From Candidatus Nanopusillus sp. (lineage in GTDB: Archaea; Nanobdellota; Nanobdellia; Nanobdellales; Nanobdellaceae): a DNA stretch of 32,000 bases. The DNA is taken from the NCBI GenBank assembly GCA_049414405.1, contig JBMSAQ010000015.1:90001-122000 (forward strand). The letters run 5' to 3'. A program made the position numbers and the translations under genes. Of this stretch, positions 1 to 25,539 are shown in pieces (within the stretch, counting starts at the first letter, position 1; each line of letters opens with the position of its first letter). The notes beneath the pieces were generated by a model. It was not told the DNA's origin. It saw only the letters and a program-made list of their open reading frames with translations, and did no database searches.

Positions 1-148
1 CAATAAAACTAGCAACTTCTAATACTAAATGTGGATTGTGTGTACCAAATATTCTTGCAACAATATATGGAAAATATATTCCTATTAATGATACAATTAT
101 TAAAAATATTGATGCTATTATTGCATCTAATAATTCATCTAGATCCAT
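1..148 (-). CDS. Partial CDS (first 49 codons, continues past the window start): membrane/secreted protein with an N-terminal hydrophobic helix; last visible gene of the pilin-like operon
   Basis: Not in the ORF track because it is partial. Minus-strand ATG at 146-148, 1 nt after the stop (150-152) of the 309-aa ORF. Hand translation MDLDELLDAIIASIFLIIVSLIGIYFPYIVARIFGTHNPHLVLEVASFI stays open to the window edge. Confidence 0.45.
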   Translation of the reverse strand, partial: MDLDELLDAIIASIFLIIVSLIGIYFPYIVARIFGTHNPHLVLEVASFI

Positions 149-149
149 A

Positions 150-1079
150 TTATTTTGGAATAGTTGCTCCTATATATATGTTAATATCTGCTGTTTTTTT
201 ATCTTTATTACTATATATATCCATATATATTGCTGTTGGTGGTAAAGAGCCTGCAAAATACAATATTGGGAAATCTATCCCAAATATATTTTCAAAAATA
301 TTACCAAACGTGGCAGCTTTTATAATCTCACCTACAAGATTACTATAAGATATTTGAGAGTTTCTTGGAAATCCTGATAATATCACACATTTTGATGGAT
401 TATATGGTAAATTTTGACTTTCATAATCTATATTTTGGTTTGGAGCACAATATATTTTATCACCTCCGACATTTGGAGACGTAAATTTACATCCATTATT
501 ATTACATGTTATTGTAGTATCATTTACTATAGTAAGAACCATTGAAGATGTTGAAAAGAAAAGATCTGTTATACTTATAAAAATTTGAAATTTATTAGAT
601 AAATCTTTATTGGAAGAGTATGCTAGCAAACCAGCATCAACATTTAATCCTTGTATTTTTATATTTATTTCATCTACATTTAAAGATCTTTGCTTTATTA
701 ATTTACAATATTCTAATGCTGGCGCAAATATGACAGTCTTTCCATTATCTACGGTAGAAACATTCCAATAGGCTATTTTAACAGATAATGCACCTACAAC
801 TTGATTTGGAGGTAAACAACGATATAATTGTAAGTACCACCCATCTTTATTTGTCAATACAAAAACATAATTGTAATCATAATTATTTATAAATACTCTT
901 CCATAATTTTTGTTATTTTTGTCATTTATACTATCAGCAATTGAATTTAAATATCCAACGTATCTTGCCTCATCTCCCATTGCTATTCCAATAAACACCA
1001 TAATAATATAAAATATTAAAACTGCCAGTACAATTAATATTATTATATCAAAAATTATTCTAAGAAAATTATTCTTCAT
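150..1079 (-). CDS. Pilin-headed predicted extracellular protein, 309 aa, function unknown
   Basis: ORF track. N-terminus MKNNFLRIIFDIIILIVLAVLIFYIIMVFIGIAMG is a short polar head plus a long hydrophobic helix. The remainder is Asn/Ser/Thr-rich with N-x-S/T sequons and 7 Cys. The ATG lies 1 nt after the stop of the preceding mini-ORF. No enzymatic motif recognised. Confidence 0.6.
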   Translation of the reverse strand: MKNNFLRIIFDIIILIVLAVLIFYIIMVFIGIAMGDEARYVGYLNSIADSINDKNNKNYGRVFINNYDYNYVFVLTNKDGWYLQLYRCLPPNQVVGALSVKIAYWNVSTVDNGKTVIFAPALEYCKLIKQRSLNVDEINIKIQGLNVDAGLLAYSSNKDLSNKFQIFISITDLFFSTSSMVLTIVNDTTITCNNNGCKFTSPNVGGDKIYCAPNQNIDYESQNLPYNPSKCVILSGFPRNSQISYSNLVGEIIKAATFGNIFENIFGIDFPILYFAGSLPPTAIYMDIYSNKDKKTADINIYIGATIPK

Positions 1080-1080
1080 A

Positions 1081-1242
1081 TTATCCCAATCCTGATCGAT
1101 TTAGTAAATCGTATCCAACGTTAGTCGCATTCACTTGCATAGAGTTATTTACTATATTATAATAAAATAATATTGCTAAAACAATTATTACCAATGCTAT
1201 TATTAAAAATATTAAAAAGTTTATTGAATTATTAGCCTCCAT
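1081..1242 (-). CDS. Mini-pilin-like protein, 53 aa (below the ORF-track cutoff)
   Basis: Hand translation of the minus strand: MEANNSINFLIFLIIALVIIVLAILFYYNIVNNSMQVNATNVGYDLLNRSGLG. ATG at 1240-1242 overlaps the end of the 61-aa ORF by 11 nt; stop at 1081-1083. Same head + helix + sequon-rich tail (NNS, NAT, NRS) as the other small paralogs. Confidence 0.55.
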   Translation of the reverse strand: MEANNSINFLIFLIIALVIIVLAILFYYNIVNNSMQVNATNVGYDLLNRSGLG

Positions 1243-1417
1243 AGTTATTTGTATTTATACTATTTACAATATTTGTGCCATTTGTTTGGGGTATACTATT
1301 GAATAAATTTACTCCACCTTTGAAATAAAAGTACATAAACATTACTAATAATACTAAAGCAACTATAAATAATATTACTGCTATTAAAAAGGTATTTACC
1401 TCTGTTTTTTTATCCAT
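1232..1417 (-). CDS. Mini-pilin-like protein, 61 aa
   Basis: ORF track. MDKKTEVNTFLIAVILFIVALVLLVMFMYFYF is a charged head plus hydrophobic helix, followed by an Asn/Thr-rich tail (NGT sequon). Overlaps both flanking mini-ORFs. Confidence 0.6.
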   Translation of the reverse strand: MDKKTEVNTFLIAVILFIVALVLLVMFMYFYFKGGVNLFNSIPQTNGTNIVNSINTNNYGG

Positions 1418-1556
1418 TTCCTCCTATTAATTGATATTTAGCAAATATATTTATATTTAGCCCTATTTTTGGCCCTATTATAATAAAAACAAATATTAAT
1501 ATTAATACAATAAATACTAATGCCAAAATTATCTTTAAAAGCTCCCCTGTTTCCAT
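1410..1556 (-). CDS. Mini-pilin-like / single-pass membrane peptide, 48 aa (below the ORF-track cutoff)
   Basis: Hand translation: METGELLKIILALVFIVLILIFVFIIIGPKIGLNINIFAKYQLIGGNG. ATG at 1554-1556; stop at 1410-1412 overlaps the ATG (1415-1417) of the next ORF by 8 nt. A TTTATAAAT TATA-like element lies 22-30 nt upstream. Confidence 0.5.
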   Translation of the reverse strand: METGELLKIILALVFIVLILIFVFIIIGPKIGLNINIFAKYQLIGGNG

Positions 1557-1586
1557 TATAAATCTAAAAACTTTGTAATTTATAAA

Positions 1587-2798
1587 CTAACTTTCGCCTG
1601 AAATTGCTGTTAATACAATTACCCTATTTCCTCCTTCATACGTATATTGTATTATCATACCATTTGGTAATCTCATATTACCTGGAATAATCATAACCCG
1701 ATCTGGTGAAGGATTACCTTCAGTTGAACTTAGTTGTTTAACATTATCACCTTGACCTTGACCTTGATATACTCTAAATGAATTTACCAATAGTTTATTA
1801 TATACATTTGATGTTTGTGGATTTGATAACATTATTTTACTATTTACATTACTTAATACCCGACATGGAATATTGTCATTACTATTCTTTATTACATTGT
1901 TTCCATACATAACTTCCAATGGGATATAATCATAATATCTCATCATTCCCAACATACACAAAACGTCATTTAATGTAACATTATATTTACTATTATAATC
2001 AAACAATATTAATGCATATTCATTATGATTTCTTGCTATAACTACGCTCTGTCCCAATGTTTCTCCGTATGTATAAAATAAATATTTTGCAATTAAATAT
2101 GTTGCATATAAGTTTTGGCATTCTTCTTTTGTTGGGTTACTACAATATCCTTGTTTTTCTATATATTCTACATATGTTTGATTTAAATCTTTAAGCATTC
2201 TTCTTATTTCAGAATTATCTATGTTACTTAAATTTAAAGCTACTACACCTTGTGGAACTAAATAATATAAAATAGGTGCTTGAATTGCATATGCTAAATT
2301 ATTTAAGAAATAAGATACCATATTTAAACCAATTGTTCCTGCCAATAAACCTTTACCCATCGGATTTAAAAAGACTTTTTTATATGTACCTCCAACATGC
2401 GATGCAATTGTTTTTATTGGAGCTCCTCCAGTATTAAGATCTCTAAATAACAAAGTTACTAAGCCAACTTTATCCTTGGCATATCCAGCACTTTTTAAAA
2501 TCTTTATGTTCTGATTATAATTTGTTTTTACTCCAGAAACTACACCAGCAGCAGTTGTAGCAGCAACAACTCCTAATAATACATCATTTGCAATTGTTGC
2601 AGCATTGGATACTCCCTGTGCCACCGGATTTATCATAAAACTTGTACTTCCAGCCAAAGCATATCCAAATTTTGCCTCTGGTCTACCTGCATAACTAAGA
2701 CCTTTTAATACATTAAAGAAAACTATTATTACAAATATTAGTATAATAATTATAACAATAAGCTCTATTACATTATCACTTATAGATTTCATAACCAT
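1587..2798 (-). CDS. Pilin-headed protein, 403 aa, function unknown; first gene of the operon
   Basis: ORF track. N-terminus MVMKSISDNVIELIVIIIILIFVIIVFFNVL, with an alternative start at Met3 giving MKSISDN, closely matching MKNSISID of the 62-aa mini-pilin. A Gly/Ala-rich hydrophobic segment follows, then an Asn-rich domain with 4 Cys. Confidence 0.65.
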   Translation of the reverse strand: MVMKSISDNVIELIVIIIILIFVIIVFFNVLKGLSYAGRPEAKFGYALAGSTSFMINPVAQGVSNAATIANDVLLGVVAATTAAGVVSGVKTNYNQNIKILKSAGYAKDKVGLVTLLFRDLNTGGAPIKTIASHVGGTYKKVFLNPMGKGLLAGTIGLNMVSYFLNNLAYAIQAPILYYLVPQGVVALNLSNIDNSEIRRMLKDLNQTYVEYIEKQGYCSNPTKEECQNLYATYLIAKYLFYTYGETLGQSVVIARNHNEYALILFDYNSKYNVTLNDVLCMLGMMRYYDYIPLEVMYGNNVIKNSNDNIPCRVLSNVNSKIMLSNPQTSNVYNKLLVNSFRVYQGQGQGDNVKQLSSTEGNPSPDRVMIIPGNMRLPNGMIIQYTYEGGNRVIVLTAISGES

Positions 2799-2997: not shown

Positions 2998-4032
2998 ATG
3001 CAACTACGCCAGCGTTTAGATGATATTTTATTAGATGGGGTGGGGAAAAGTGTATGGGGTGGTCTTAGCAAAATTAAAGAAGGAGTTAGTAGATCTATAA
3101 GATATTTAGATGAAAAATTAAAAGAAATAGGAAATAAAACTTATGAAAAACTTAGGGAAACCAAAAATAAAATATCAGAATATATGCCAATAATAAAAGA
3201 TTCTGCAATAGCATCATTACCATATACTACGAAAGTCCTAATTTTGGCAGGATCATCTATGAAAAATACATCTAGAGGTCTTGCGGGTAGGGCTGTTGGA
3301 TATTTACTAATAGGTGCTGGTGCTGCTACCCTTGGATTATTTGTATTATCCGGAATACACGGATTACCATCTCCAAACAATGAAAACATACAATATGTGG
3401 GATCTCCAGATGGGTATCAAGGATTTGTACCAAAAGGTGTAATAAATTACGAAGGACAGACAAATCCCAGGGGTGACTTAATATTAAATGATGGAAGAGT
3501 ATTAAATAATGCAGTATGGCATGGTAAATACTCAGATACAATAATCGAGAACAACAATCAAATAGTTAAATTGAATAATTATTTTGTTGGAAAGATCAAT
3601 CCAGTAAATAATCAGCCATTTGAATATCTACAAGATGTTTATGTAATTAAAGGTCAAGTACCAATTAAAGAAATAACAATAAATGGACAAATACATTATG
3701 TAATAGATGCTAATAAAATACATGAAGCAAATGTGGCAGGATTTTATACATATAAAGAGTGGGTAGATGACTTTGTAGCAGCAATGAATACACCAGGAAC
3801 AACAGCAGCAAGATTACCAGGAGATTCTCCTGTATTTAAATGGACAAATACAATAGGGATTGTAGCATATCAAACAAAAGTGTATCAACAATATTATCCA
3901 TATTTAAGTGGAGGGGCTGTATTAATACAACCTAATGGAACTATAATTCCATATGGAATATTCGGTCCTATTATAGGGGTTAATTTATCAAACTTTGGTC
4001 TTCCTAAACAATTATATAATCCTTCTAGTTAA
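2998..4032 (+). CDS. Predicted type II membrane protein, 344 aa, function unknown
   Basis: ORF track. About 95 aa of charged, helical N-terminus, one hydrophobic span (AVGYLLIGAGAATLGLFVLSGI), then about 225 aa of Asn/Gly/Tyr-rich C-terminal domain. Divergent from the pilin-like operon and convergent with the 860-aa gene. T5/T6 runs follow the stop. Confidence 0.65.
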   Translation: MQLRQRLDDILLDGVGKSVWGGLSKIKEGVSRSIRYLDEKLKEIGNKTYEKLRETKNKISEYMPIIKDSAIASLPYTTKVLILAGSSMKNTSRGLAGRAVGYLLIGAGAATLGLFVLSGIHGLPSPNNENIQYVGSPDGYQGFVPKGVINYEGQTNPRGDLILNDGRVLNNAVWHGKYSDTIIENNNQIVKLNNYFVGKINPVNNQPFEYLQDVYVIKGQVPIKEITINGQIHYVIDANKIHEANVAGFYTYKEWVDDFVAAMNTPGTTAARLPGDSPVFKWTNTIGIVAYQTKVYQQYYPYLSGGAVLIQPNGTIIPYGIFGPIIGVNLSNFGLPKQLYNPSS

Positions 4033-4046
4033 TTTTTAACAATTTT

Positions 4047-6629
4047 TTAAGATATACTCACAACATATGGCACTCCGTATGTTACTATTATCCAATTCAG
4101 ATATATAAAACCAGGTCCGTTTCCAGAACCTGCTGAAATAAATAGATAAGGAGTTCCAACATATACATTTATATCATCTTGTAAATGGTATATACTAACA
4201 GATTGCAATTGTGAAAGACTATTGTACCTTTCTTTAAATCCAAATGTTCCATATACAAAATTATTGTCTACATCATTAAAAGTAAATTCGAAATATCTAT
4301 TCAAAGCATTTTGACGATTTGCTGGTTGATTAAACGCCGTATTATATGCATTTATGTATGATTGTACAAATATAGGTTTTTTAGTTGTTGCACTTATATT
4401 TCCAGGTGGTGCTGGTGGTATTGCATATGCATTTTTCCCATTCCAACTATATTGTACAGATGCAAGAGAATAATTAAATATATTTCCATTCATTAAGAAA
4501 AATATATTTATCTTGTTATTATCAGTAACATCGGTCTGGAACCAATTATATAACCAAAATACACCATATTGATAATATTGTTGATTATTTTTTTGATTTG
4601 GTGGCATAAATGGGAAATAGTTTTCTCCTTCATATCCACGTATATTTCCTGTATTATCTTCTAAGAAATAATAATTCAGCTTAGGACAACCCAAAGGACA
4701 TGTAAGGCTATATAAAGTACTCCACCCAGTTCCCGAATAATAATAGTTCCAATATTGATTATTTGCATTTGTATTTGGATTTTTTGTATATTTTGTAGTT
4801 AAAAAATACCCTATAGTATTGTTATATTGCAATATTCCAACATAATAACCTGCGGTATTTCCCGGTCTTGCACCCCCGGGTACCCATCCATATTCATACA
4901 TAAACATTGGAAAATTAAGTGGTAAATATGTTTCTCCCCCAACCCTTATTCCTATATCTCTATTTCCAATAGAGATACAGTCTCCCGCTATTGAACATAT
5001 TCTATTATTAAGATTATAATCATTATAATGATTTACAGTATTTATCTTTAAATTATTATTATCTGCAATATATGATAATACTACTGCATGCGAAACCAAA
5101 GGACGTGAAACCAAAGGAACAGAATCGTCGAGAGGAGGATCTAACCAAGGTATTCCAGAAAAGTATGCAAATGTTTGTAATCCCAATCCATTTTGCGATT
5201 TAGATAATCTATAAAATGTATTTTTTAAAATATCAGACGTAATTAATGCATAAGATCCTTGTTTTGTTCCATTAACCATTAATAATCCTTTAAAAGGTCT
5301 ATCGATTACAATACTTATTCTAGCTGTTCCGTTTAAATAAACGTTTACATTATTATATGGAGGTAATATATTATTATGTTGAAGTAATATATTGTTATTT
5401 TGATAACATGCTTTATATTTACTAGTATCACAATTATCTGAGGGTATCATCTCTACCCAATATACATTATTATCTGGATATGGATAAAAATTTACATATA
5501 TTGGAAATACATTTAACCCATTATCATATATAACTGCAGAAGATGGTTTATTTGGACTTAAAGCTTCTGGAGCCCCACCAATTGTTCCATTAAAGTATGG
5601 TAATAAGTTTTCATCACTAAATCCAACAAATAATGATACAATATTACAACCAAAATTATTACTATATAATGAAGGAACATTTAATAAATTAATGAAGAAA
5701 TAATAATTCCTATTATGTTCTCCAGCATACCATGAAGGTAATGCATAATATTTACCTTTATAATTAAGTATAAACACTACATTGCTTCCAACATGTGGGG
5801 ATCTTTTAATATAATTACTTAGTGGAGGACCAATTATAACCAATATATTTTGAAAATCATCCATAACGTATCCGCCATTATTTGATAAAGGTATAGCCAA
5901 ATATGTTCCATTAATAATTTTTACATTATTTATTGTATAATCATAATATTTAGAATTTGGATATTGATTTTTATCTAATAAAGATATTGCTGGAGTTATA
6001 TTTATATATAAAGGTTCATTTAAATAGAAATTTTGTATATTTTGACTATTACTTGATTTACATAATATACAAAAATATACAAAACCACCTGCCTGATATG
6101 TTACACGATTATTTCCTACAACACTACATTCATATCTATTTCCCCGATATGTATATGTAACACTATTTCCTTCAAAGGTATTATTTGATAATCTAATTAC
6201 AGATTCTATATCAACATTATTTAATGATTCTATACTATAAGATCTTGAACTAATATTTGTTATATTTTCAGGATTTATTCTTAATACATTAACATTATTA
6301 TTACCCCCGCTATAAGTATTTGTAATATTATAATATATATTCCAATTATCTTGATCTACAATAAATGAAGGAACATATTGTATACTAAATCCATTTTGAT
6401 AGTATATACTTACCATAATTGTTGAATTTATAGTGTTCTGATTATTTCTATCTTCTTTATTTGGGACATCTTTATCTTGTATTGAAATATAATATTGAGA
6501 TGGAGTATAAATATTGTAATATTTAAATATTGAAGTTAAAATAAATATAACCCCAGCTAGAATTATAATAAATATTGGAAGATAATATCCTATAAAAAGC
6601 ATAAGACTATCAAAAATTTTCCCCCTCAT
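4047..6629 (-). CDS. Large pilin-headed Asn/Tyr-rich surface protein, 860 aa (candidate adhesin or cell-envelope protein)
   Basis: ORF track. N-terminus MRGKIFDSLMLFIGYYLPIFIIILAGVIFIL. I counted at least a dozen N-x-S/T sequons by eye. Cys residues occur in closely spaced pairs (FCILC, CDTSKYKAC, CSIAGDC, CPLGC). The ATG overlaps the stop of the 62-aa mini-pilin in an ATGA junction. Confidence 0.8.
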   Translation of the reverse strand: MRGKIFDSLMLFIGYYLPIFIIILAGVIFILTSIFKYYNIYTPSQYYISIQDKDVPNKEDRNNQNTINSTIMVSIYYQNGFSIQYVPSFIVDQDNWNIYYNITNTYSGGNNNVNVLRINPENITNISSRSYSIESLNNVDIESVIRLSNNTFEGNSVTYTYRGNRYECSVVGNNRVTYQAGGFVYFCILCKSSNSQNIQNFYLNEPLYINITPAISLLDKNQYPNSKYYDYTINNVKIINGTYLAIPLSNNGGYVMDDFQNILVIIGPPLSNYIKRSPHVGSNVVFILNYKGKYYALPSWYAGEHNRNYYFFINLLNVPSLYSNNFGCNIVSLFVGFSDENLLPYFNGTIGGAPEALSPNKPSSAVIYDNGLNVFPIYVNFYPYPDNNVYWVEMIPSDNCDTSKYKACYQNNNILLQHNNILPPYNNVNVYLNGTARISIVIDRPFKGLLMVNGTKQGSYALITSDILKNTFYRLSKSQNGLGLQTFAYFSGIPWLDPPLDDSVPLVSRPLVSHAVVLSYIADNNNLKINTVNHYNDYNLNNRICSIAGDCISIGNRDIGIRVGGETYLPLNFPMFMYEYGWVPGGARPGNTAGYYVGILQYNNTIGYFLTTKYTKNPNTNANNQYWNYYYSGTGWSTLYSLTCPLGCPKLNYYFLEDNTGNIRGYEGENYFPFMPPNQKNNQQYYQYGVFWLYNWFQTDVTDNNKINIFFLMNGNIFNYSLASVQYSWNGKNAYAIPPAPPGNISATTKKPIFVQSYINAYNTAFNQPANRQNALNRYFEFTFNDVDNNFVYGTFGFKERYNSLSQLQSVSIYHLQDDINVYVGTPYLFISAGSGNGPGFIYLNWIIVTYGVPYVVSIS

Positions 6630-6814
6630 CTTATTAGATCTGGAATTGATTGATTTGTAATATTATTAAAACTATTATTGATGAAATTGAATGATTGATT
6701 TGATGCTGTATTTCCACCCAAAAATATTTTATATCCAAACATAACTGCTAAAACCAATATAACCAATGCAATAATTAAAATAATTACCATATCTATTGAT
6801 ATGCTATTTTTCAT
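6626..6814 (-). CDS. Mini-pilin-like protein, 62 aa
   Basis: ORF track. MKNSISIDMVIILIIALVILVLAVMFGY, then tail GGNTASNQSFNFINNSFNNITNQSIPDLIR with 4 sequons. Translationally coupled to the 860-aa gene by a 4-nt overlap. Confidence 0.65.
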   Translation of the reverse strand: MKNSISIDMVIILIIALVILVLAVMFGYKIFLGGNTASNQSFNFINNSFNNITNQSIPDLIR

Positions 6815-6846
6815 ATATATCTAAAAAATCTCATTAATTATAAATT

Positions 6847-7287
6847 TTATTCGAAAACTTTCTTTTTATAATAATACAAAATTATTCCAAGATTAGTAAT
6901 TAATATTCCATCTGCTATAAGACAATATATACATATTGAATTAATTAAAAAGAACATAGTATATAATGAAAATATTACAAATATTATACCAATTGACCTA
7001 TAAAATAAATTATAAATTATTTTCAACATTTTCTTATACAACAACAATATCAAAAATAAATCTACTATAAAATATGCAATAGTATAAACTCCCAAAGATA
7101 TCCCAAATAACTTTGAATATGGACTATTCAATACTTTTTCACAATCAATTAATGTATTATCAACAGAACAAAAATATGGTAATGATTTACTTATCAAAAC
7201 CGTATATTCTAGATATACAAATATAATTATACCTATTATTGAGAATATTGTCAATAAAAATAATCTTTTATCAAATTTTAAGTTCAT
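6847..7287 (-). CDS. Vitamin K epoxide reductase (VKOR) family disulfide oxidoreductase
   Basis: 146 aa with about four hydrophobic spans. Loop cysteine pair and conserved Ser region FCSVDNTLIDCEKVLNSPYSKLFGISLG. A CxxC (CIYC) sits inside the last helix. This is the VKOR/DsbB-like signature layout. Confidence 0.7.
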   Translation of the reverse strand: MNLKFDKRLFLLTIFSIIGIIIFVYLEYTVLISKSLPYFCSVDNTLIDCEKVLNSPYSKLFGISLGVYTIAYFIVDLFLILLLYKKMLKIIYNLFYRSIGIIFVIFSLYTMFFLINSICIYCLIADGILITNLGIILYYYKKKVFE

Positions 7288-7340
7288 AAAATATAAATAA
7301 GTATTATAAATTTATAAATTTTTGAATAAATAAACAAAAA

Positions 7341-7901
7341 ATGGGGAAATATTATCATTTATCATTTGAAAAAGAAGAAATTAGCAAAAAAATAAAATTA
7401 GAAAATGAAGAAGATCCATTATTTATTATTAGTTATAATCCATCAGCATATTCTTTTAGATATACATTTCTATTATATTTACTTTTTTGTATATATGGTA
7501 TTGTATTTTCTATTTCAACATACTATAATCCTAATATAATGTCTTTTATTTTATTATTTTTTATTACTTCAATTTTATTCTATATTGCACTTAAATATTA
7601 TGAAGTGGCAAAGAATCGTTATATAATACTTACAAATAAGAGATTAATATTACTTGAAAATGAAAATATAAGGTCAATAGATAATTCATATATAAATAAT
7701 ATAGAAATATATCAAAGTTTATATGAAAGATCTAAAAAATTATATACGATAAAAATTTATACCAGTACACTTTTATTAAATAAAAATGTGAGTTTAATAA
7801 TTGAATTACCATTACTTAAAAAGGAAGATATGGAAAAAATAAGAGAAATTATCCTAAATAATATACCTAAGAGGCCTGAACAGGCGAAACCTGTTCCTTA
7901 A
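7341..7901 (+). CDS. Membrane protein with a bacterial-type PH (bPH_2/DUF304-like) domain
   Basis: Two hydrophobic helices followed by YIILTNKRLILLENENIRSIDNSYINNIEIYQS, the typical 'vTnkRli' start of bPH domains. The 3' end overlaps the L21e gene by 35 nt. Confidence 0.5.
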   Translation: MGKYYHLSFEKEEISKKIKLENEEDPLFIISYNPSAYSFRYTFLLYLLFCIYGIVFSISTYYNPNIMSFILLFFITSILFYIALKYYEVAKNRYIILTNKRLILLENENIRSIDNSYINNIEIYQSLYERSKKLYTIKIYTSTLLLNKNVSLIIELPLLKKEDMEKIREIILNNIPKRPEQAKPVP

Positions 7902-18326: not shown

Positions 18327-18416
18327 GGGCCCGTAGCTCAGAGGTGGAGCGCCGGCCTTATAAGGCTACGCTCCTGAGAAAGCCGGAGGTCAGGGGTTCG
18401 AGTCCCCTCGGGCCCA
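18327..18416 (+). tRNA. tRNA-Ile (anticodon UAU) with an 18-nt intron at canonical position 37/38
   Basis: Hand-folded: acceptor GGGCCCG/CGGGCCC, D arm GCTC-AGAGGTG-GAGC, anticodon stem CCGGC/GCCGG, loop CTTATA|intron|A, T arm AGGGG-TTCGAGT-CCCCT, discriminator A. A T5 run follows the 3' end. tRNA call 0.9, isotype call about 0.7. Confidence 0.85.
18363..18380 (+). other. tRNA intron within a canonical bulge-helix-bulge (BHB) motif
   Basis: Central 4-bp helix C57-G78, U58-A77, U59-G76, A60-U75 (last two digits of the coordinates). It is flanked by 3-nt bulges U61-A62-A63 and A79-A80-A81, each cut after its second base. Outer helices are the anticodon stem and G64-G65/C73-C74. Confidence 0.75.
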
Positions 18417-19828: not shown

Positions 19829-20746
19829 TTAGCTAGATACTAAAGGTTGCAATATACTATTAAATAAATTATATGGCAGAGCCCCTGAAAATATAAACAT
19901 TATATATTTATAATCCTCTGTTGTATATACTGAAGGGCTTAATCCATATTGTCTTAATTGATTTAGTACATTATTAACCTGTTGAATTGCTTGGAATGTA
20001 ATTGATGATGTCTTTACAACTACCATAAATGTTGGAGTTCCCCCAATTCCGTATGTGTCCCTATAATATTTTAATTCACTATCTATTTGATTATAGTATT
20101 TTGAACTATTTACACAGGATTCGATTCTATTAACATCCAATCCTAAAGATTGTGCCTTTTTATTAAATTCTCTATATACATCTTGTTGACTTGGTAAAAT
20201 ACTCCAAGACACACCTTGCATTTGATTATGCCAAGCCCAGTTTGCAAGTTTATCCCACGTTTCAAATCCATATAATTTGTATACGCATGTTAAATATTGT
20301 GCTGTTAGATTCGCGTATGGGTGTATCTGATATAGTGGAAAATTGACAAACACCCATGCTATTTTTCCATTATCTATGTAATTTTGTCTAATTTGTGGAA
20401 ATGTTTGTAAGTGAAATAGATTACAATATGGACATTGAAAATCAGAAAATTCATATACAATAACATTTACATTATTTGGATTTCCATATACTGGATCTAT
20501 ATCAGAAATACTTGGCAATGGTGCCTGTGGTAATGTTTGTAAATAAGCTTGTAATTGATTTGAAGGTCCAACAGATGATCCATATATTTTTATATTTGAT
20601 ATTGAATTGGCTATAATGTAAGATCCTATAACTACTGAAATTGCTAACACTATAAATCCAATTATTATTGATTTTTCTACTGTAATATTAAACTTCCGTT
20701 CTTTCTTTTCATTATTTTCTTTATTTTTTTCTTTTTCTATTTCCAT
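19829..20746 (-). CDS. Membrane-anchored DsbA-like thioredoxin-fold oxidoreductase (CPYC)
   Basis: Lys/Glu-rich N-terminus, one TM (IIIGFIVLAISVVIGSYII), then EFSDFQCPYCNLFH and a late GGTPTF (cis-Pro loop-like) motif, typical of DsbA/Thioredoxin_4 proteins. Confidence 0.7.
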   Translation of the reverse strand: MEIEKEKNKENNEKKERKFNITVEKSIIIGFIVLAISVVIGSYIIANSISNIKIYGSSVGPSNQLQAYLQTLPQAPLPSISDIDPVYGNPNNVNVIVYEFSDFQCPYCNLFHLQTFPQIRQNYIDNGKIAWVFVNFPLYQIHPYANLTAQYLTCVYKLYGFETWDKLANWAWHNQMQGVSWSILPSQQDVYREFNKKAQSLGLDVNRIESCVNSSKYYNQIDSELKYYRDTYGIGGTPTFMVVVKTSSITFQAIQQVNNVLNQLRQYGLSPSVYTTEDYKYIMFIFSGALPYNLFNSILQPLVSS

Positions 20747-25494: not shown

Positions 25495-25539
25495 TTTTTT
25501 AAATTTTATAATTAATCATAAAGGGTATTTACGCTATTT

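Follow-up and report, generated by a model that had tools for sequence, protein, structure and literature searches.

How do nanoarchaeal ectosymbionts recognize and hold the archaea on which they live? According to cryo-electron tomography papers from 2024, the proteins that build the attachment organelle are unknown, and a locus of the hot-spring symbiont Candidatus Nanopusillus sp. could make the question directly testable. It lies in a 32,000-nucleotide (nt) stretch of GenBank assembly GCA_049414405.1 (contig JBMSAQ010000015.1, positions 90,001 to 122,000), referred to here as the window, from whose first nucleotide all coordinates are counted. The locus holds two overlapping genes, for a 62-amino-acid (aa) and an 860-aa protein, and a convergent gene for a 344-aa membrane protein. 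A first reading of the DNA letters, made without database searches (the sequence-only reading), had described the overlapping pair as a mini-pilin coupled to a large protein with a pilin-like head, and had proposed the latter as a candidate for host contact. The interpretation that we favor, and hold to be probable if only modestly so, is that this Nanopusillaceae-specific operon of two genes encodes a host-contact complex at the cell surface. It draws on the conserved structure of the operon, on the make-up of the large protein, and on the repeated transfer of one end of that gene, together with its partner, to genomes of host lineages.

Both genes of the pair are real and conserved. On the minus strand, the open reading frame (ORF) for the 62-aa protein (6626-6814, annotated MFZ8800995.1) and that for the 860-aa protein (4047-6629) overlap by 4 nt in an ATGA stop/start junction at 6626-6629 (...ATA AGA TGA / ATG AGG GGG), just as the sequence-only reading had it. 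This junction, a candidate point of translational coupling, is present in 7/7 orthologous loci (Nanopusillus spp., Nanobsidianus Nst1 and AB-777_F03, N. acidilobi locus 1, YN1, and Nanobdella), in which the small ORF encodes 60-62 aa and the identity of the large proteins spans 35-80%, and chance is therefore not a sufficient explanation for it. The large protein belongs to arCOG10265 (orthologues Nst1_036, Nps_00210, Nps_01640, YN1_3820, and MJ1_0040), and N. acidilobi has two copies of this family, Nps_00210 (the orthologue of Nst1_036) and its paralogue Nps_01640. Gene order near the locus follows that of Nanobdella aerobiophila (ArgRS, S10, Nop, fibrillarin, Rpb4, L21e, a small bPH-like membrane protein, and then the locus), and the G+C content of the window is ~25%.

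At 27 nt upstream of the small ORF, a B recognition element (BRE)/TATA promoter element, an exact match to AAAATTTATAATT (6836-6848, minus strand), stands at an identical distance in all seven loci, and the same element lies at the same distance before the ATG of the N. acidilobi paralogue, which has no small ORF. The TTTATA hexamer is placed at -30 to -25 from the small-ORF ATG. Given the usual archaeal distance from the TATA box to the transcription start site, this position implies that the small ORF and the 860-aa gene share one leaderless bicistronic mRNA. No Shine-Dalgarno-like purine run occurs within 30 nt upstream of the 860-aa start, and the second cistron would therefore be reached by termination-reinitiation, with coupling suggested by the geometry of the overlap. 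The stop/start overlap, the single conserved TATA box before the first cistron, the lack of a Shine-Dalgarno sequence, and the retention of this arrangement across orthologues are the features of a bicistron, and the two proteins are probably co-expressed. The GenBank start of the large gene in the metagenome-assembled genome (MAG; ACO2ON_02325) is placed at Met10 (851 aa), which abolishes the ATGA overlap. As both the overlap and the MRGKIFD sequence (residues 1-9 region) are conserved in homologues, comparison across the family indicates that Met1 is the true start.

The first cistron encodes a predicted micro-glycoprotein, with a polar N-terminus (MKNSISID), a hydrophobic helix of ~22 residues ending in FGYK, and an Asn-rich tail that carries four N-x-S/T sequons (NQS, NNS, NIT, and NQS). 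Its family shares the N-terminal pattern M[KR][NS][SND][IL][SA]I[DS], and it is 55% identical to its 60-aa Nanobdella orthologue (E=3e-14), whereas the large protein is only 35% identical to its own.

The second cistron encodes a predicted surface glycoprotein. Its very high Tyr and Asn content, pointed out before, was borne out at roughly double that of housekeeping proteins from the same window (Asn 14.0% versus 5.7%, Tyr 10.0% versus 5.6%; reference of 4607 residues), while Lys (3.3% versus 11%) and Glu (2.1% versus 9.2%) are scarce, a make-up that would be expected for an acid-exposed ectodomain. The sequence-only reading had also counted at least a dozen sequons. There are indeed 13, but shuffled sequences of the same composition give 14.3 +/- 3.3, and we dropped sequon number as evidence of glycosylation, as it equals the chance expectation. 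Only the conservation of their positions is informative: across 27 homologous sequences, N149, N240, and N347 are sequons in 27/27, N210 in 26/27, and N68 and N433 in 25/27.

The closely spaced cysteine pairs noted earlier are likewise present. Among 10 Cys, eight form pairs (187/190, 400/408, 545/551, and 644/648), and C168 and C328 stand singly. In the same 27 homologues, C168, C187, C190, and C328 are invariant, C400/C408 are found in 24, and the remaining Cys vary. The Cys count is even in 23/27, and the variable Cys are gained or lost as pairs, mostly 2-10 residues apart and at different sites in each lineage. These pairs fall in the least conserved stretches (residues 381-420, 501-560, and 621-660), which look like variable loops stapled by disulfides. 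A VKOR-family membrane thiol oxidoreductase gene (6847-7287, minus strand; Pfam PF07884, E=5.6e-18, also NCBIfam; own TATA at 7310-7322) lies directly upstream of the small ORF, and a VKOR-like gene occupies the same place in YN1. The window further encodes a membrane-anchored DsbA/thioredoxin-like protein with a CPYC motif (19829-20746, minus strand; Pfam Thioredoxin_4 6.8e-18, DSBA 1.8e-8), which probably acts with VKOR to form disulfides outside the cytoplasm. The paired Cys and the presence of both genes together provide good indirect support for extracytoplasmic disulfides, and the 860-aa protein, whose bonds are predicted, fits the profile of a VKOR/DsbA-pathway substrate.

Two short duplications fall in the ectodomain of the large protein. 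The one reported previously, encoding PLVSRPLVS at 5092-5118 (minus strand), is an exact 12-mer repeat, GAAACCAAAGGA, at 5092-5103 and 5107-5118 with a spacing of 15 nt (PLVSR-PLVS). It was not reported by Tandem Repeats Finder (TRF) at a score of 30, lies in a variable loop modeled at low confidence (pLDDT <50), and is absent from the closest (80%-identical) homologue. A 21-nt tandem duplication that the sequence-only reading had missed (5346-5403, minus strand; NNILLQH/NNILPPY, 2.6 copies, TRF score 75) is located in the most variable part of the ectodomain, around residues 409-428, and is shorter in other homologues.

Sequence searches placed the 860-aa protein in no known family, as had been suspected from its lack of recognizable motifs. 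Pfam and NCBIfam searches of the window proteins and a profile search of the Protein Data Bank (PDB) gave no match for it, nor did Pfam searches of 15 family members at E<=10. A phmmer search over 1.84 billion representatives returned Nanopusillaceae fragments together with a single distant homologue of 705/730 aa (P0131/P0144). A profile search yielded no members beyond the family itself, and none was found in N. equitans. An additional candidate member, the Bacteroidetes repeat protein P0141, was discarded as a spurious low-complexity match. The distant 730-aa homologue (L002 7926-10118, metagenome contig ERZ27245618 k141_15072) is 24-29% identical, rich in Lys and Glu, encoded between FBPase and MCM genes, and probably from another nanoarchaeal lineage; its called gene begins 25 codons too late. 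In the 607-kb genome of Candidatus Nanopusillus massiliensis, the family is represented by separate 459-aa and 164-aa fragments (P0154 and P0168), and the gene may be split or frameshifted there. Our literature search for arCOG10265 found no paper.

The large protein is predicted to consist of three parts. Residues 1-39 (6513-6629, minus strand) form an amphipathic and hydrophobic helix, MRGKIFDSLMLFIGYYLPIFIIILAGVIFILTSIFKYY, modeled by AlphaFold2 (AF2) as helical over residues 4-39. Column identity over residues 1-40 is 0.87-0.92, the highest in the protein (0.43-0.9 elsewhere), which rules out a disposable signal peptide and points to specific helix packing. An Asn/Gln-rich low-complexity linker follows (residues 40-64; 6438-6512, minus strand; consensus QNQNNQNNQN), which is predicted to be disordered (pLDDT 23-37). 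The remainder (residues 65-860; 4050-6437, minus strand), which holds 6-7 conserved sequons and the four invariant Cys, is a predicted all-beta ectodomain. The first AF2 model, built from 27 sequences, gave the helix and the disordered linker but was poor overall (pLDDT 58.7), and for the ectodomain it was superseded by a model of residues 65-860 built from 72 sequences (pLDDT 77.9, pTM 0.81). With moderate confidence, and at the level of fold class only, this second model suggests Ig-like sandwiches followed by a ConA/LamG/DUF2341-like body. Ig-like and lectin-like folds were among those that the sequence-only reading had recommended looking for, and the matches to both are weak (TM-scores 0.2-0.45). 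Taken together, all sequence marks are consistent with an extracytoplasmic, N-glycosylated, disulfide-bonded protein that is anchored by its N-terminus.

Foldseek searches of the ectodomain model against the PDB gave weak matches to Gram-positive pilin stalks (EbpB, E=3.4e-5; SpaA; FctB), and L-type lectins recurred (VIP36, Emp46p, and legume lectins; TMt 0.35-0.45). The best structural matches of all ectodomain searches were to proteins of Sulfolobales filamentous viruses (SBRV1 A0A3Q8Q3Y8, betalipothrixvirus A7WKX9, and AFV6 ORF1369). Among viral models, the top matches were to a DUF2341 protein of Sulfolobales Beppu rod-shaped virus 1 (E=7.3e-7, prob 1.0) and to a betalipothrixvirus Laminin-G protein (E=6.9e-5, prob 0.77). 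AFV6 ORF1369 carries DUF2341, Laminin_G_3, and L-type lectin domains, and Sulfolobales viruses and nanoarchaeal symbionts alike must dock onto crenarchaeal envelopes. The viral DUF2341/LamG proteins have no sequence or profile similarity to the 860-aa protein, a tblastn search of phage records having found nothing, and their TM-scores are only 0.22-0.28; the match probably reflects a common fold class and not demonstrable homology.

The ConA-like superfamily also includes glucanases, and a glycoside hydrolase (GH) family 7 cellobiohydrolase was among the weak matches, which brings up the alternative of an extracellular glycan-processing enzyme whose ConA-like body is a glucanase-type domain that opens the glycosylated S-layer of the host. 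Invariant acidic and aromatic residues (D369 in YDNG, E579 in EYGW, and D497), and core motifs more conserved than a pure adhesin would predict, are compatible with this idea. No catalytic motif was recognized, no GH family hidden Markov model (HMM) matched, and the best fold matches are lectin, LamG, and DUF2341 proteins rather than hydrolases, and we regard an enzymatic role as improbable.

The helices at the start of both proteins raise a further alternative, a true type IV pilus-like fiber, which we consider possible but doubtful. In such a fiber, the 62-aa protein would be a glycosylated major mini-pilin, comparable to Flp or to EpdE of Methanococcus, which is small and glycosylated, and the 860-aa protein would be a pilin-headed tip or minor-pilin adhesin. 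Both would be trimmed by a prepilin peptidase and extruded by a non-archaellum ATPase/TadC pair encoded elsewhere, with minor pilins supplied by an operon of N-terminal-helix proteins downstream of the locus. The closest precedent is offered by the Epd type IV-like pili of Methanococcus maripaludis, for which an adhesion role has been proposed and whose loci, as here, encode a tiny helix-and-tail subunit near a large beta-rich DUF2341/ConA-like protein, along with several small overlapping genes for N-terminal-helix proteins (PMC4858521; PMC10133366). Unlike the Epd genes, the small and large genes here overlap in a coupled arrangement, and the large protein has a helix and a disordered linker of its own. 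The locus also differs in lacking a canonical KG/Q motif in both proteins, a match to pilin or DUF2341 HMMs, and dedicated peptidase, ATPase, or platform genes.

A FlaFind-type class III motif comprises a short charged leader ending in [KR][GA], an allowed +1 residue, and a hydrophobic stretch. The starts of the 62-aa protein (MKN/SISID, with Asn/Ser at -1) and of the 860-aa protein (MRG/KIFD, with Lys at +1) depart from it, and the Gly is not kept in YN1 (MKSDVLNF), Nanobdella (MKTQFGSILEF), or the distant homologue (MKRSLLSE). The downstream genes come closer: Nanobdella orthologues of two of them begin with the canonical class III sequences MKKG/VSDSVISL and MAYHKG/QISTFLVA, N-termini of these genes across species keep Lys/Arg at -2 and Gly/Ser/Thr at -1, and the family pattern of the mini-protein is in register with KGQISxE. 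Still, the motif is only 4 residues long, and one or two matches among ~9 N-termini are near chance. No pilin or archaellin HMM (Pfam Pilin_N and Class_IIIsignal; NCBIfam) matched a window protein at E<=1, and the best Pilin_N match, to a neighboring 273-aa protein of Nanobdella that had no NCBIfam match, was E=0.019 and 16.3 bits (cut-off 25.2).

Neither the 32-kb window nor the Nanobdella locus encodes a VirB11-type ATPase, a TadC/FlaJ platform protein, or a prepilin peptidase. A pilus is nonetheless favored by a TadC/ATPase pair elsewhere in the N. acidilobi genome (Nps_02245/02250), the ATPase of which was detected in the proteome, by one nanoarchaeal pilus ATPase clade without identified pilins (Makarova et al., PMC4858521), and by the rough 15-nm appendage of unidentified make-up borne by Nanobdella (PMC11104419). 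The N-terminal helices are pilin-like and the best conserved parts of the proteins, with the higher identity in the mini-protein, and small overlapping genes for helix-only proteins recall minor-pilin operons. On the other hand, a disordered 25-residue linker between helix and body is unlike classical pilins, and the cytoplasmic domain of the partner points to a complex embedded in the membrane. Of the terms mini-pilin and pilin-like head, what stands is the conserved N-terminal hydrophobic helix, while the canonical class III motif, the pilin HMM match, and nearby machinery were not found; the evidence that either protein is pilin-like is suggestive.

Bindosome substrates of Sulfolobus are assembled near the envelope and not into long pili. 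These large ectoproteins also have a pilin-type N-terminal helix in place of a Sec signal (PMC4858521), but they possess canonical PibD sites, solute-binding folds, and adjoining Bas assembly genes, none of which were seen here. The arCOG10265 family, unnamed and uncharacterized, recalls archaeal pilus-associated adhesin systems while lacking the features that define their members.

The convergent partner gene (2998-4032, plus strand; arCOG10353; orthologues Nst1_037, Nps_00215, and Nps_01635) encodes 344 aa, laid out as a cytoplasmic N-terminal region of ~95 aa, one transmembrane helix, and an ectodomain of ~225 aa. The same tail-to-tail arrangement of an arCOG10353 and an arCOG10265 gene recurs in Nanobdella and at the two N. 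acidilobi loci. The second N. acidilobi pair (CP010514 284999-295536; L006) encodes 846 aa and 296 aa, and its large gene is leaderless. Homologue numbers differ greatly between the two families, at ~65 for the large protein and 415 for the partner. Many of the latter are 243-272 aa long and 56-81% identical over the ectodomain, with differing short leaders.

These short partner homologues lead to a block of DNA that the locus has in common with genomes of host lineages. Window positions 3338-4433, which take in codons 114-344 of the 344-aa gene, a spacer of 14 nt, and ~128 codons at the 3' end of the 860-aa gene, are 79.4% identical over 1104 nt to low-GC islands on three contigs (L019, L020, and L021). 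Such blocks are contiguous, 1.1-1.23 kb long, and 76-82% identical at the nt level, and they occur in at least five assemblies (Acidilobus, Thermoproteus, and others), with a GC fraction of 0.28-0.42 against 0.53-0.76 in their flanks, on contigs of 0.53-0.65 GC (L018 1650-2820; L019 4925-5894 and 8101-9191, two copies in opposite orientation; L022 644-1856). One of the host contigs is assigned to Acidilobus, as the aminotransferase and the GH57 protein encoded beside the island group with proteins of Acidilobus sp. 7A at 90% identity. Separate assemblies contribute Thermoproteus sp. MAG contigs of 73-110 kb, and three assemblies contribute further contigs at 53% GC. In the islands, host-type leaders of at least three kinds (MxLRxLGGAASTNPHN..., MGLAARYAAVGVVAAL..., and, in Acidilobus, MKLPGASAHEASEGAALKG...) are fused in frame to the partner ectodomain, and at least 34 protein clusters have one leader type in common. 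Convergent to the host partner gene lies a truncated 3' piece of arCOG10265 that encodes 85, 153, or 185 aa and ends in ...YLDWIIVTYGVPYV.S.S. The left edge of the block in the large gene is residue 677/678 in Acidilobus and Thermoproteus alike. The Acidilobus island is most similar to the N. acidilobi paralogue locus (81.6% over 1231 nt), and thus the island of the host genus is closest to that genus's own symbiont.

Chimeric assembly was ruled out as the source of these islands, as they are internal with high-GC DNA on both sides, their ORFs run in frame over the boundary, and they recur across assemblies with a shared leader type. The in-frame ORFs across the GC boundary, the leader types, the number of assemblies, and dN/dS values of 0.25-0.6 (one host-host pair included) argue for at least two to three separate captures with retention in host lineages. 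Searches of phage records, plasmids, and IMG/VR returned no match that could identify a vector for the block. The pattern has been reported in part: Table S9 of Jarett et al. 2018 lists the same two adjacent gene pairs as putative horizontal gene transfer between a Thermocladium sp. bin and clade 2 Nanoarchaeota. There, a host protein of 252 aa corresponds to residues 101-351 of the nanoarchaeal protein (74.2%), and an adjacent host protein of 173 aa to the C-terminal part of the neighboring nanoarchaeal protein (83.1%). Those entries show the same pattern as the islands described here, but as unannotated hypotheticals in a single host-symbiont pair, whereas we map the block, describe it as a low-GC island with host-type leaders, extend it to Acidilobus and Thermoproteus, and tie it to arCOG10265/arCOG10353. 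The host-capture pattern is therefore new in scope: four unannotated proteins in a supplementary table become the repeated symbiont-to-host transfer of one specific 1.2-kb block at ~80% nt identity.

Some other homologues carry a host name in GenBank. P0027, P0036, and P0214 are labeled 'Stygiolobus sp.' on contigs of 30-133 kb; they share 55-58% identity with the large protein of nanoarchaea, P0214 being a partner of nanoarchaeal length (350 aa). These look like nanoarchaeal contigs within host-culture assemblies and not like captured islands.

A large protein that is predicted to be glycosylated, beta-rich, and poor in Lys/Arg, like many archaeal S-layer proteins, might also be ordinary envelope. 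The sequence-only reading allowed for this, yet it is most improbable that Nanopusillus uses the 860-aa protein as its canonical S-layer protein, or as one of several. The predicted S-layer gene of N. acidilobi, Nps_00760 (= Nst1_169), lies at another locus (PMC4935971); those proposed in Nanobdella are MJ1_0160, which is NEQ300-like and its most highly transcribed gene, and MJ1_0707, while MJ1_0040 is not named there (10.1101/2023.10.27.564410); and those of YN1 are YN1_5000 and YN1_2560 (PMC11420986). The proposed nanoarchaeal S-layer proteins (NEQ300, MJ1_0160, Nps_00760, and YN1_5000) are also large, N-glycosylated, and predicted to have Ig-like or lectin-like folds (10.1101/2023.10.27.564410), but they belong to other families and have no conserved N-terminal anchor helix, small-ORF partner, or host-captured block. 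Pfam, NCBIfam, and PDB sequence searches gave no S-layer family, the sole S-layer fold match in the PDB (8cka, HPI of D. radiodurans) had a prob of 0.01, and the anchor is N-terminal, not C-terminal. With the literature assigning this role to other genes and no family match, we rejected S-layer identity for the 860-aa protein.

A related and quite unlikely alternative is that the 860-aa protein and its 344-aa partner serve as a structural element of the envelope and build a repetitive lattice outside the membrane, for instance the attachment-organelle cone, or an anchor or under-layer for the S-layer. The family is confined to the lineage in which an attachment organelle has been seen, the large protein has an N-terminal membrane anchor, and the partner has a cytoplasmic domain, all of which a lattice would accommodate. 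So would the abundance of the partner paralogue Nps_01635, ~33rd in one measure of the N. acidilobi proteome, although part of this signal might come from peptides common to the host-encoded copy. Nothing ties the 860-aa protein to the cone, such an organelle is not reported for Nanopusillus, and the S-layer is assigned to the genes named above. Variable disulfide-stapled loops and lineage-specific indels, moreover, fit a recognition surface better than a lattice.

A recognition surface is what the favored interpretation, a two-gene operon for a host-contact complex, proposes. In this scheme, the conserved BRE/TATA box would drive a leaderless mRNA whose first cistron yields a 62-aa single-pass glycopeptide, with a hydrophobic helix and a tail bearing 3-4 conserved N-glycosylation sites. 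Ribosomes ending the small ORF would re-initiate at the ATGA and make the 860-aa protein, so that both are produced in a fixed ratio. The large protein would be held by its conserved N-terminal helix, uncleaved or merely trimmed at the N-terminus, and may pack this helix against that of the 62-aa protein. Its flexible Asn/Gln linker would carry an N-glycosylated ectodomain in which a ConA/LamG/DUF2341-like lectin-fold body is joined to Ig-like stalk domains. Two invariant disulfides would hold this ectodomain in shape, local ones would staple its fast-changing loops, and all of them would be formed by the neighboring VKOR and the DsbA-like protein. The C-terminal ~185 residues may bind the ectodomain of the 344-aa membrane partner, and the variable, disulfide-stapled, lectin-like face may bind the glycosylated envelope of the crenarchaeal host. 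The partner ectodomain captured by hosts, an intact membrane-anchored ORF, could then act as a receptor mimic or decoy. The repeated capture of the C-terminal domain together with the partner ectodomain suggests that their interface matters in the host-symbiont relationship. The earlier proposal of a host-contact role thus gains an adhesin-like fold and the capture of the 3' end and partner by host-lineage genomes, with surface location being predicted. A glycosylated surface would be in line with the binding of the N-acetylglucosamine lectin wheat germ agglutinin by N. acidilobi cells (PMC4935971).

Several observations weigh against this interpretation. The surface location and glycosylation of the 860-aa protein are predictions, and the contact between its C-terminal domain and the partner is proposed from nothing beyond their co-location and co-transfer. 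Fold matches are low in TM-score (0.2-0.45), no profile-profile link to LamG/DUF2341 was found (hhalign of the family against AFV6 ORF1369, prob 0.2), and 'lectin-like' names a class of modeled fold and not a carbohydrate-binding activity. The second N. acidilobi paralogue manages with no small ORF of its own, and the distant 730-aa homologue has neither an adjoining small ORF nor a partner gene. In some hosts, the captured stump of the large gene is frameshifted, and only the partner ectodomain is clearly maintained. Finally, none of the orthologues Nps_00205/00210/00215 was seen in the N. acidilobi proteome, which is not decisive, because a Lys/Arg-poor glycoprotein of this kind offers only 17 sequon-free tryptic peptides of 7-30 aa.

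A more far-reaching and rather unlikely version of the host-contact interpretation is that the mini-protein, the 860-aa protein, and the 344-aa protein are parts of the Nanobdellota attachment organelle or of the rough 15-nm appendage. Copies of the Acidilobus, Thermoproteus, or Thermocladium type, displayed on the host membrane, would then bind in trans to the C-terminal domain of the large symbiont protein, as a receptor or decoy that tunes docking. If true, this would amount to a molecular handshake born of symbiont-to-host gene transfer. In any case, the locus supplies named candidates for both sides of the contact: for the symbiont, the coupled micro-glycoprotein, the lectin-fold ectoprotein, and the membrane partner, and for the host, the intact partner ectodomains that host lineages have captured.

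Beyond the locus, the downstream operon (150-2798, minus strand) encodes N-terminal-helix proteins of 403 aa (1587-2798), 48 aa (1410-1556), 61 aa (1232-1417), 53 aa (1081-1242), and 309 aa (150-1079). Its three micro-ORFs overlap, its gene order is that of the Nanobdella locus, and a further gene (1-148, minus strand) is cut by the window edge. A 186-aa protein with two transmembrane helices and a weak bPH_2 match (7341-7901, plus strand) is divergent from the VKOR gene and lies beside L21e in both Nanopusillus and Nanobdella. A 90-nt tRNA (18327-18416, plus strand; Rfam, 64 bits) has no sensible anticodon according to ARAGORN and probably contains an intron. Elements of the AAAATTTATAA type also occur at 7310-7322 (minus strand) and 25501-25513 (plus strand), 23-35 nt upstream of the VKOR and FttA genes, respectively, which suggests that leaderless transcripts are the rule in the Nanopusillus genome.

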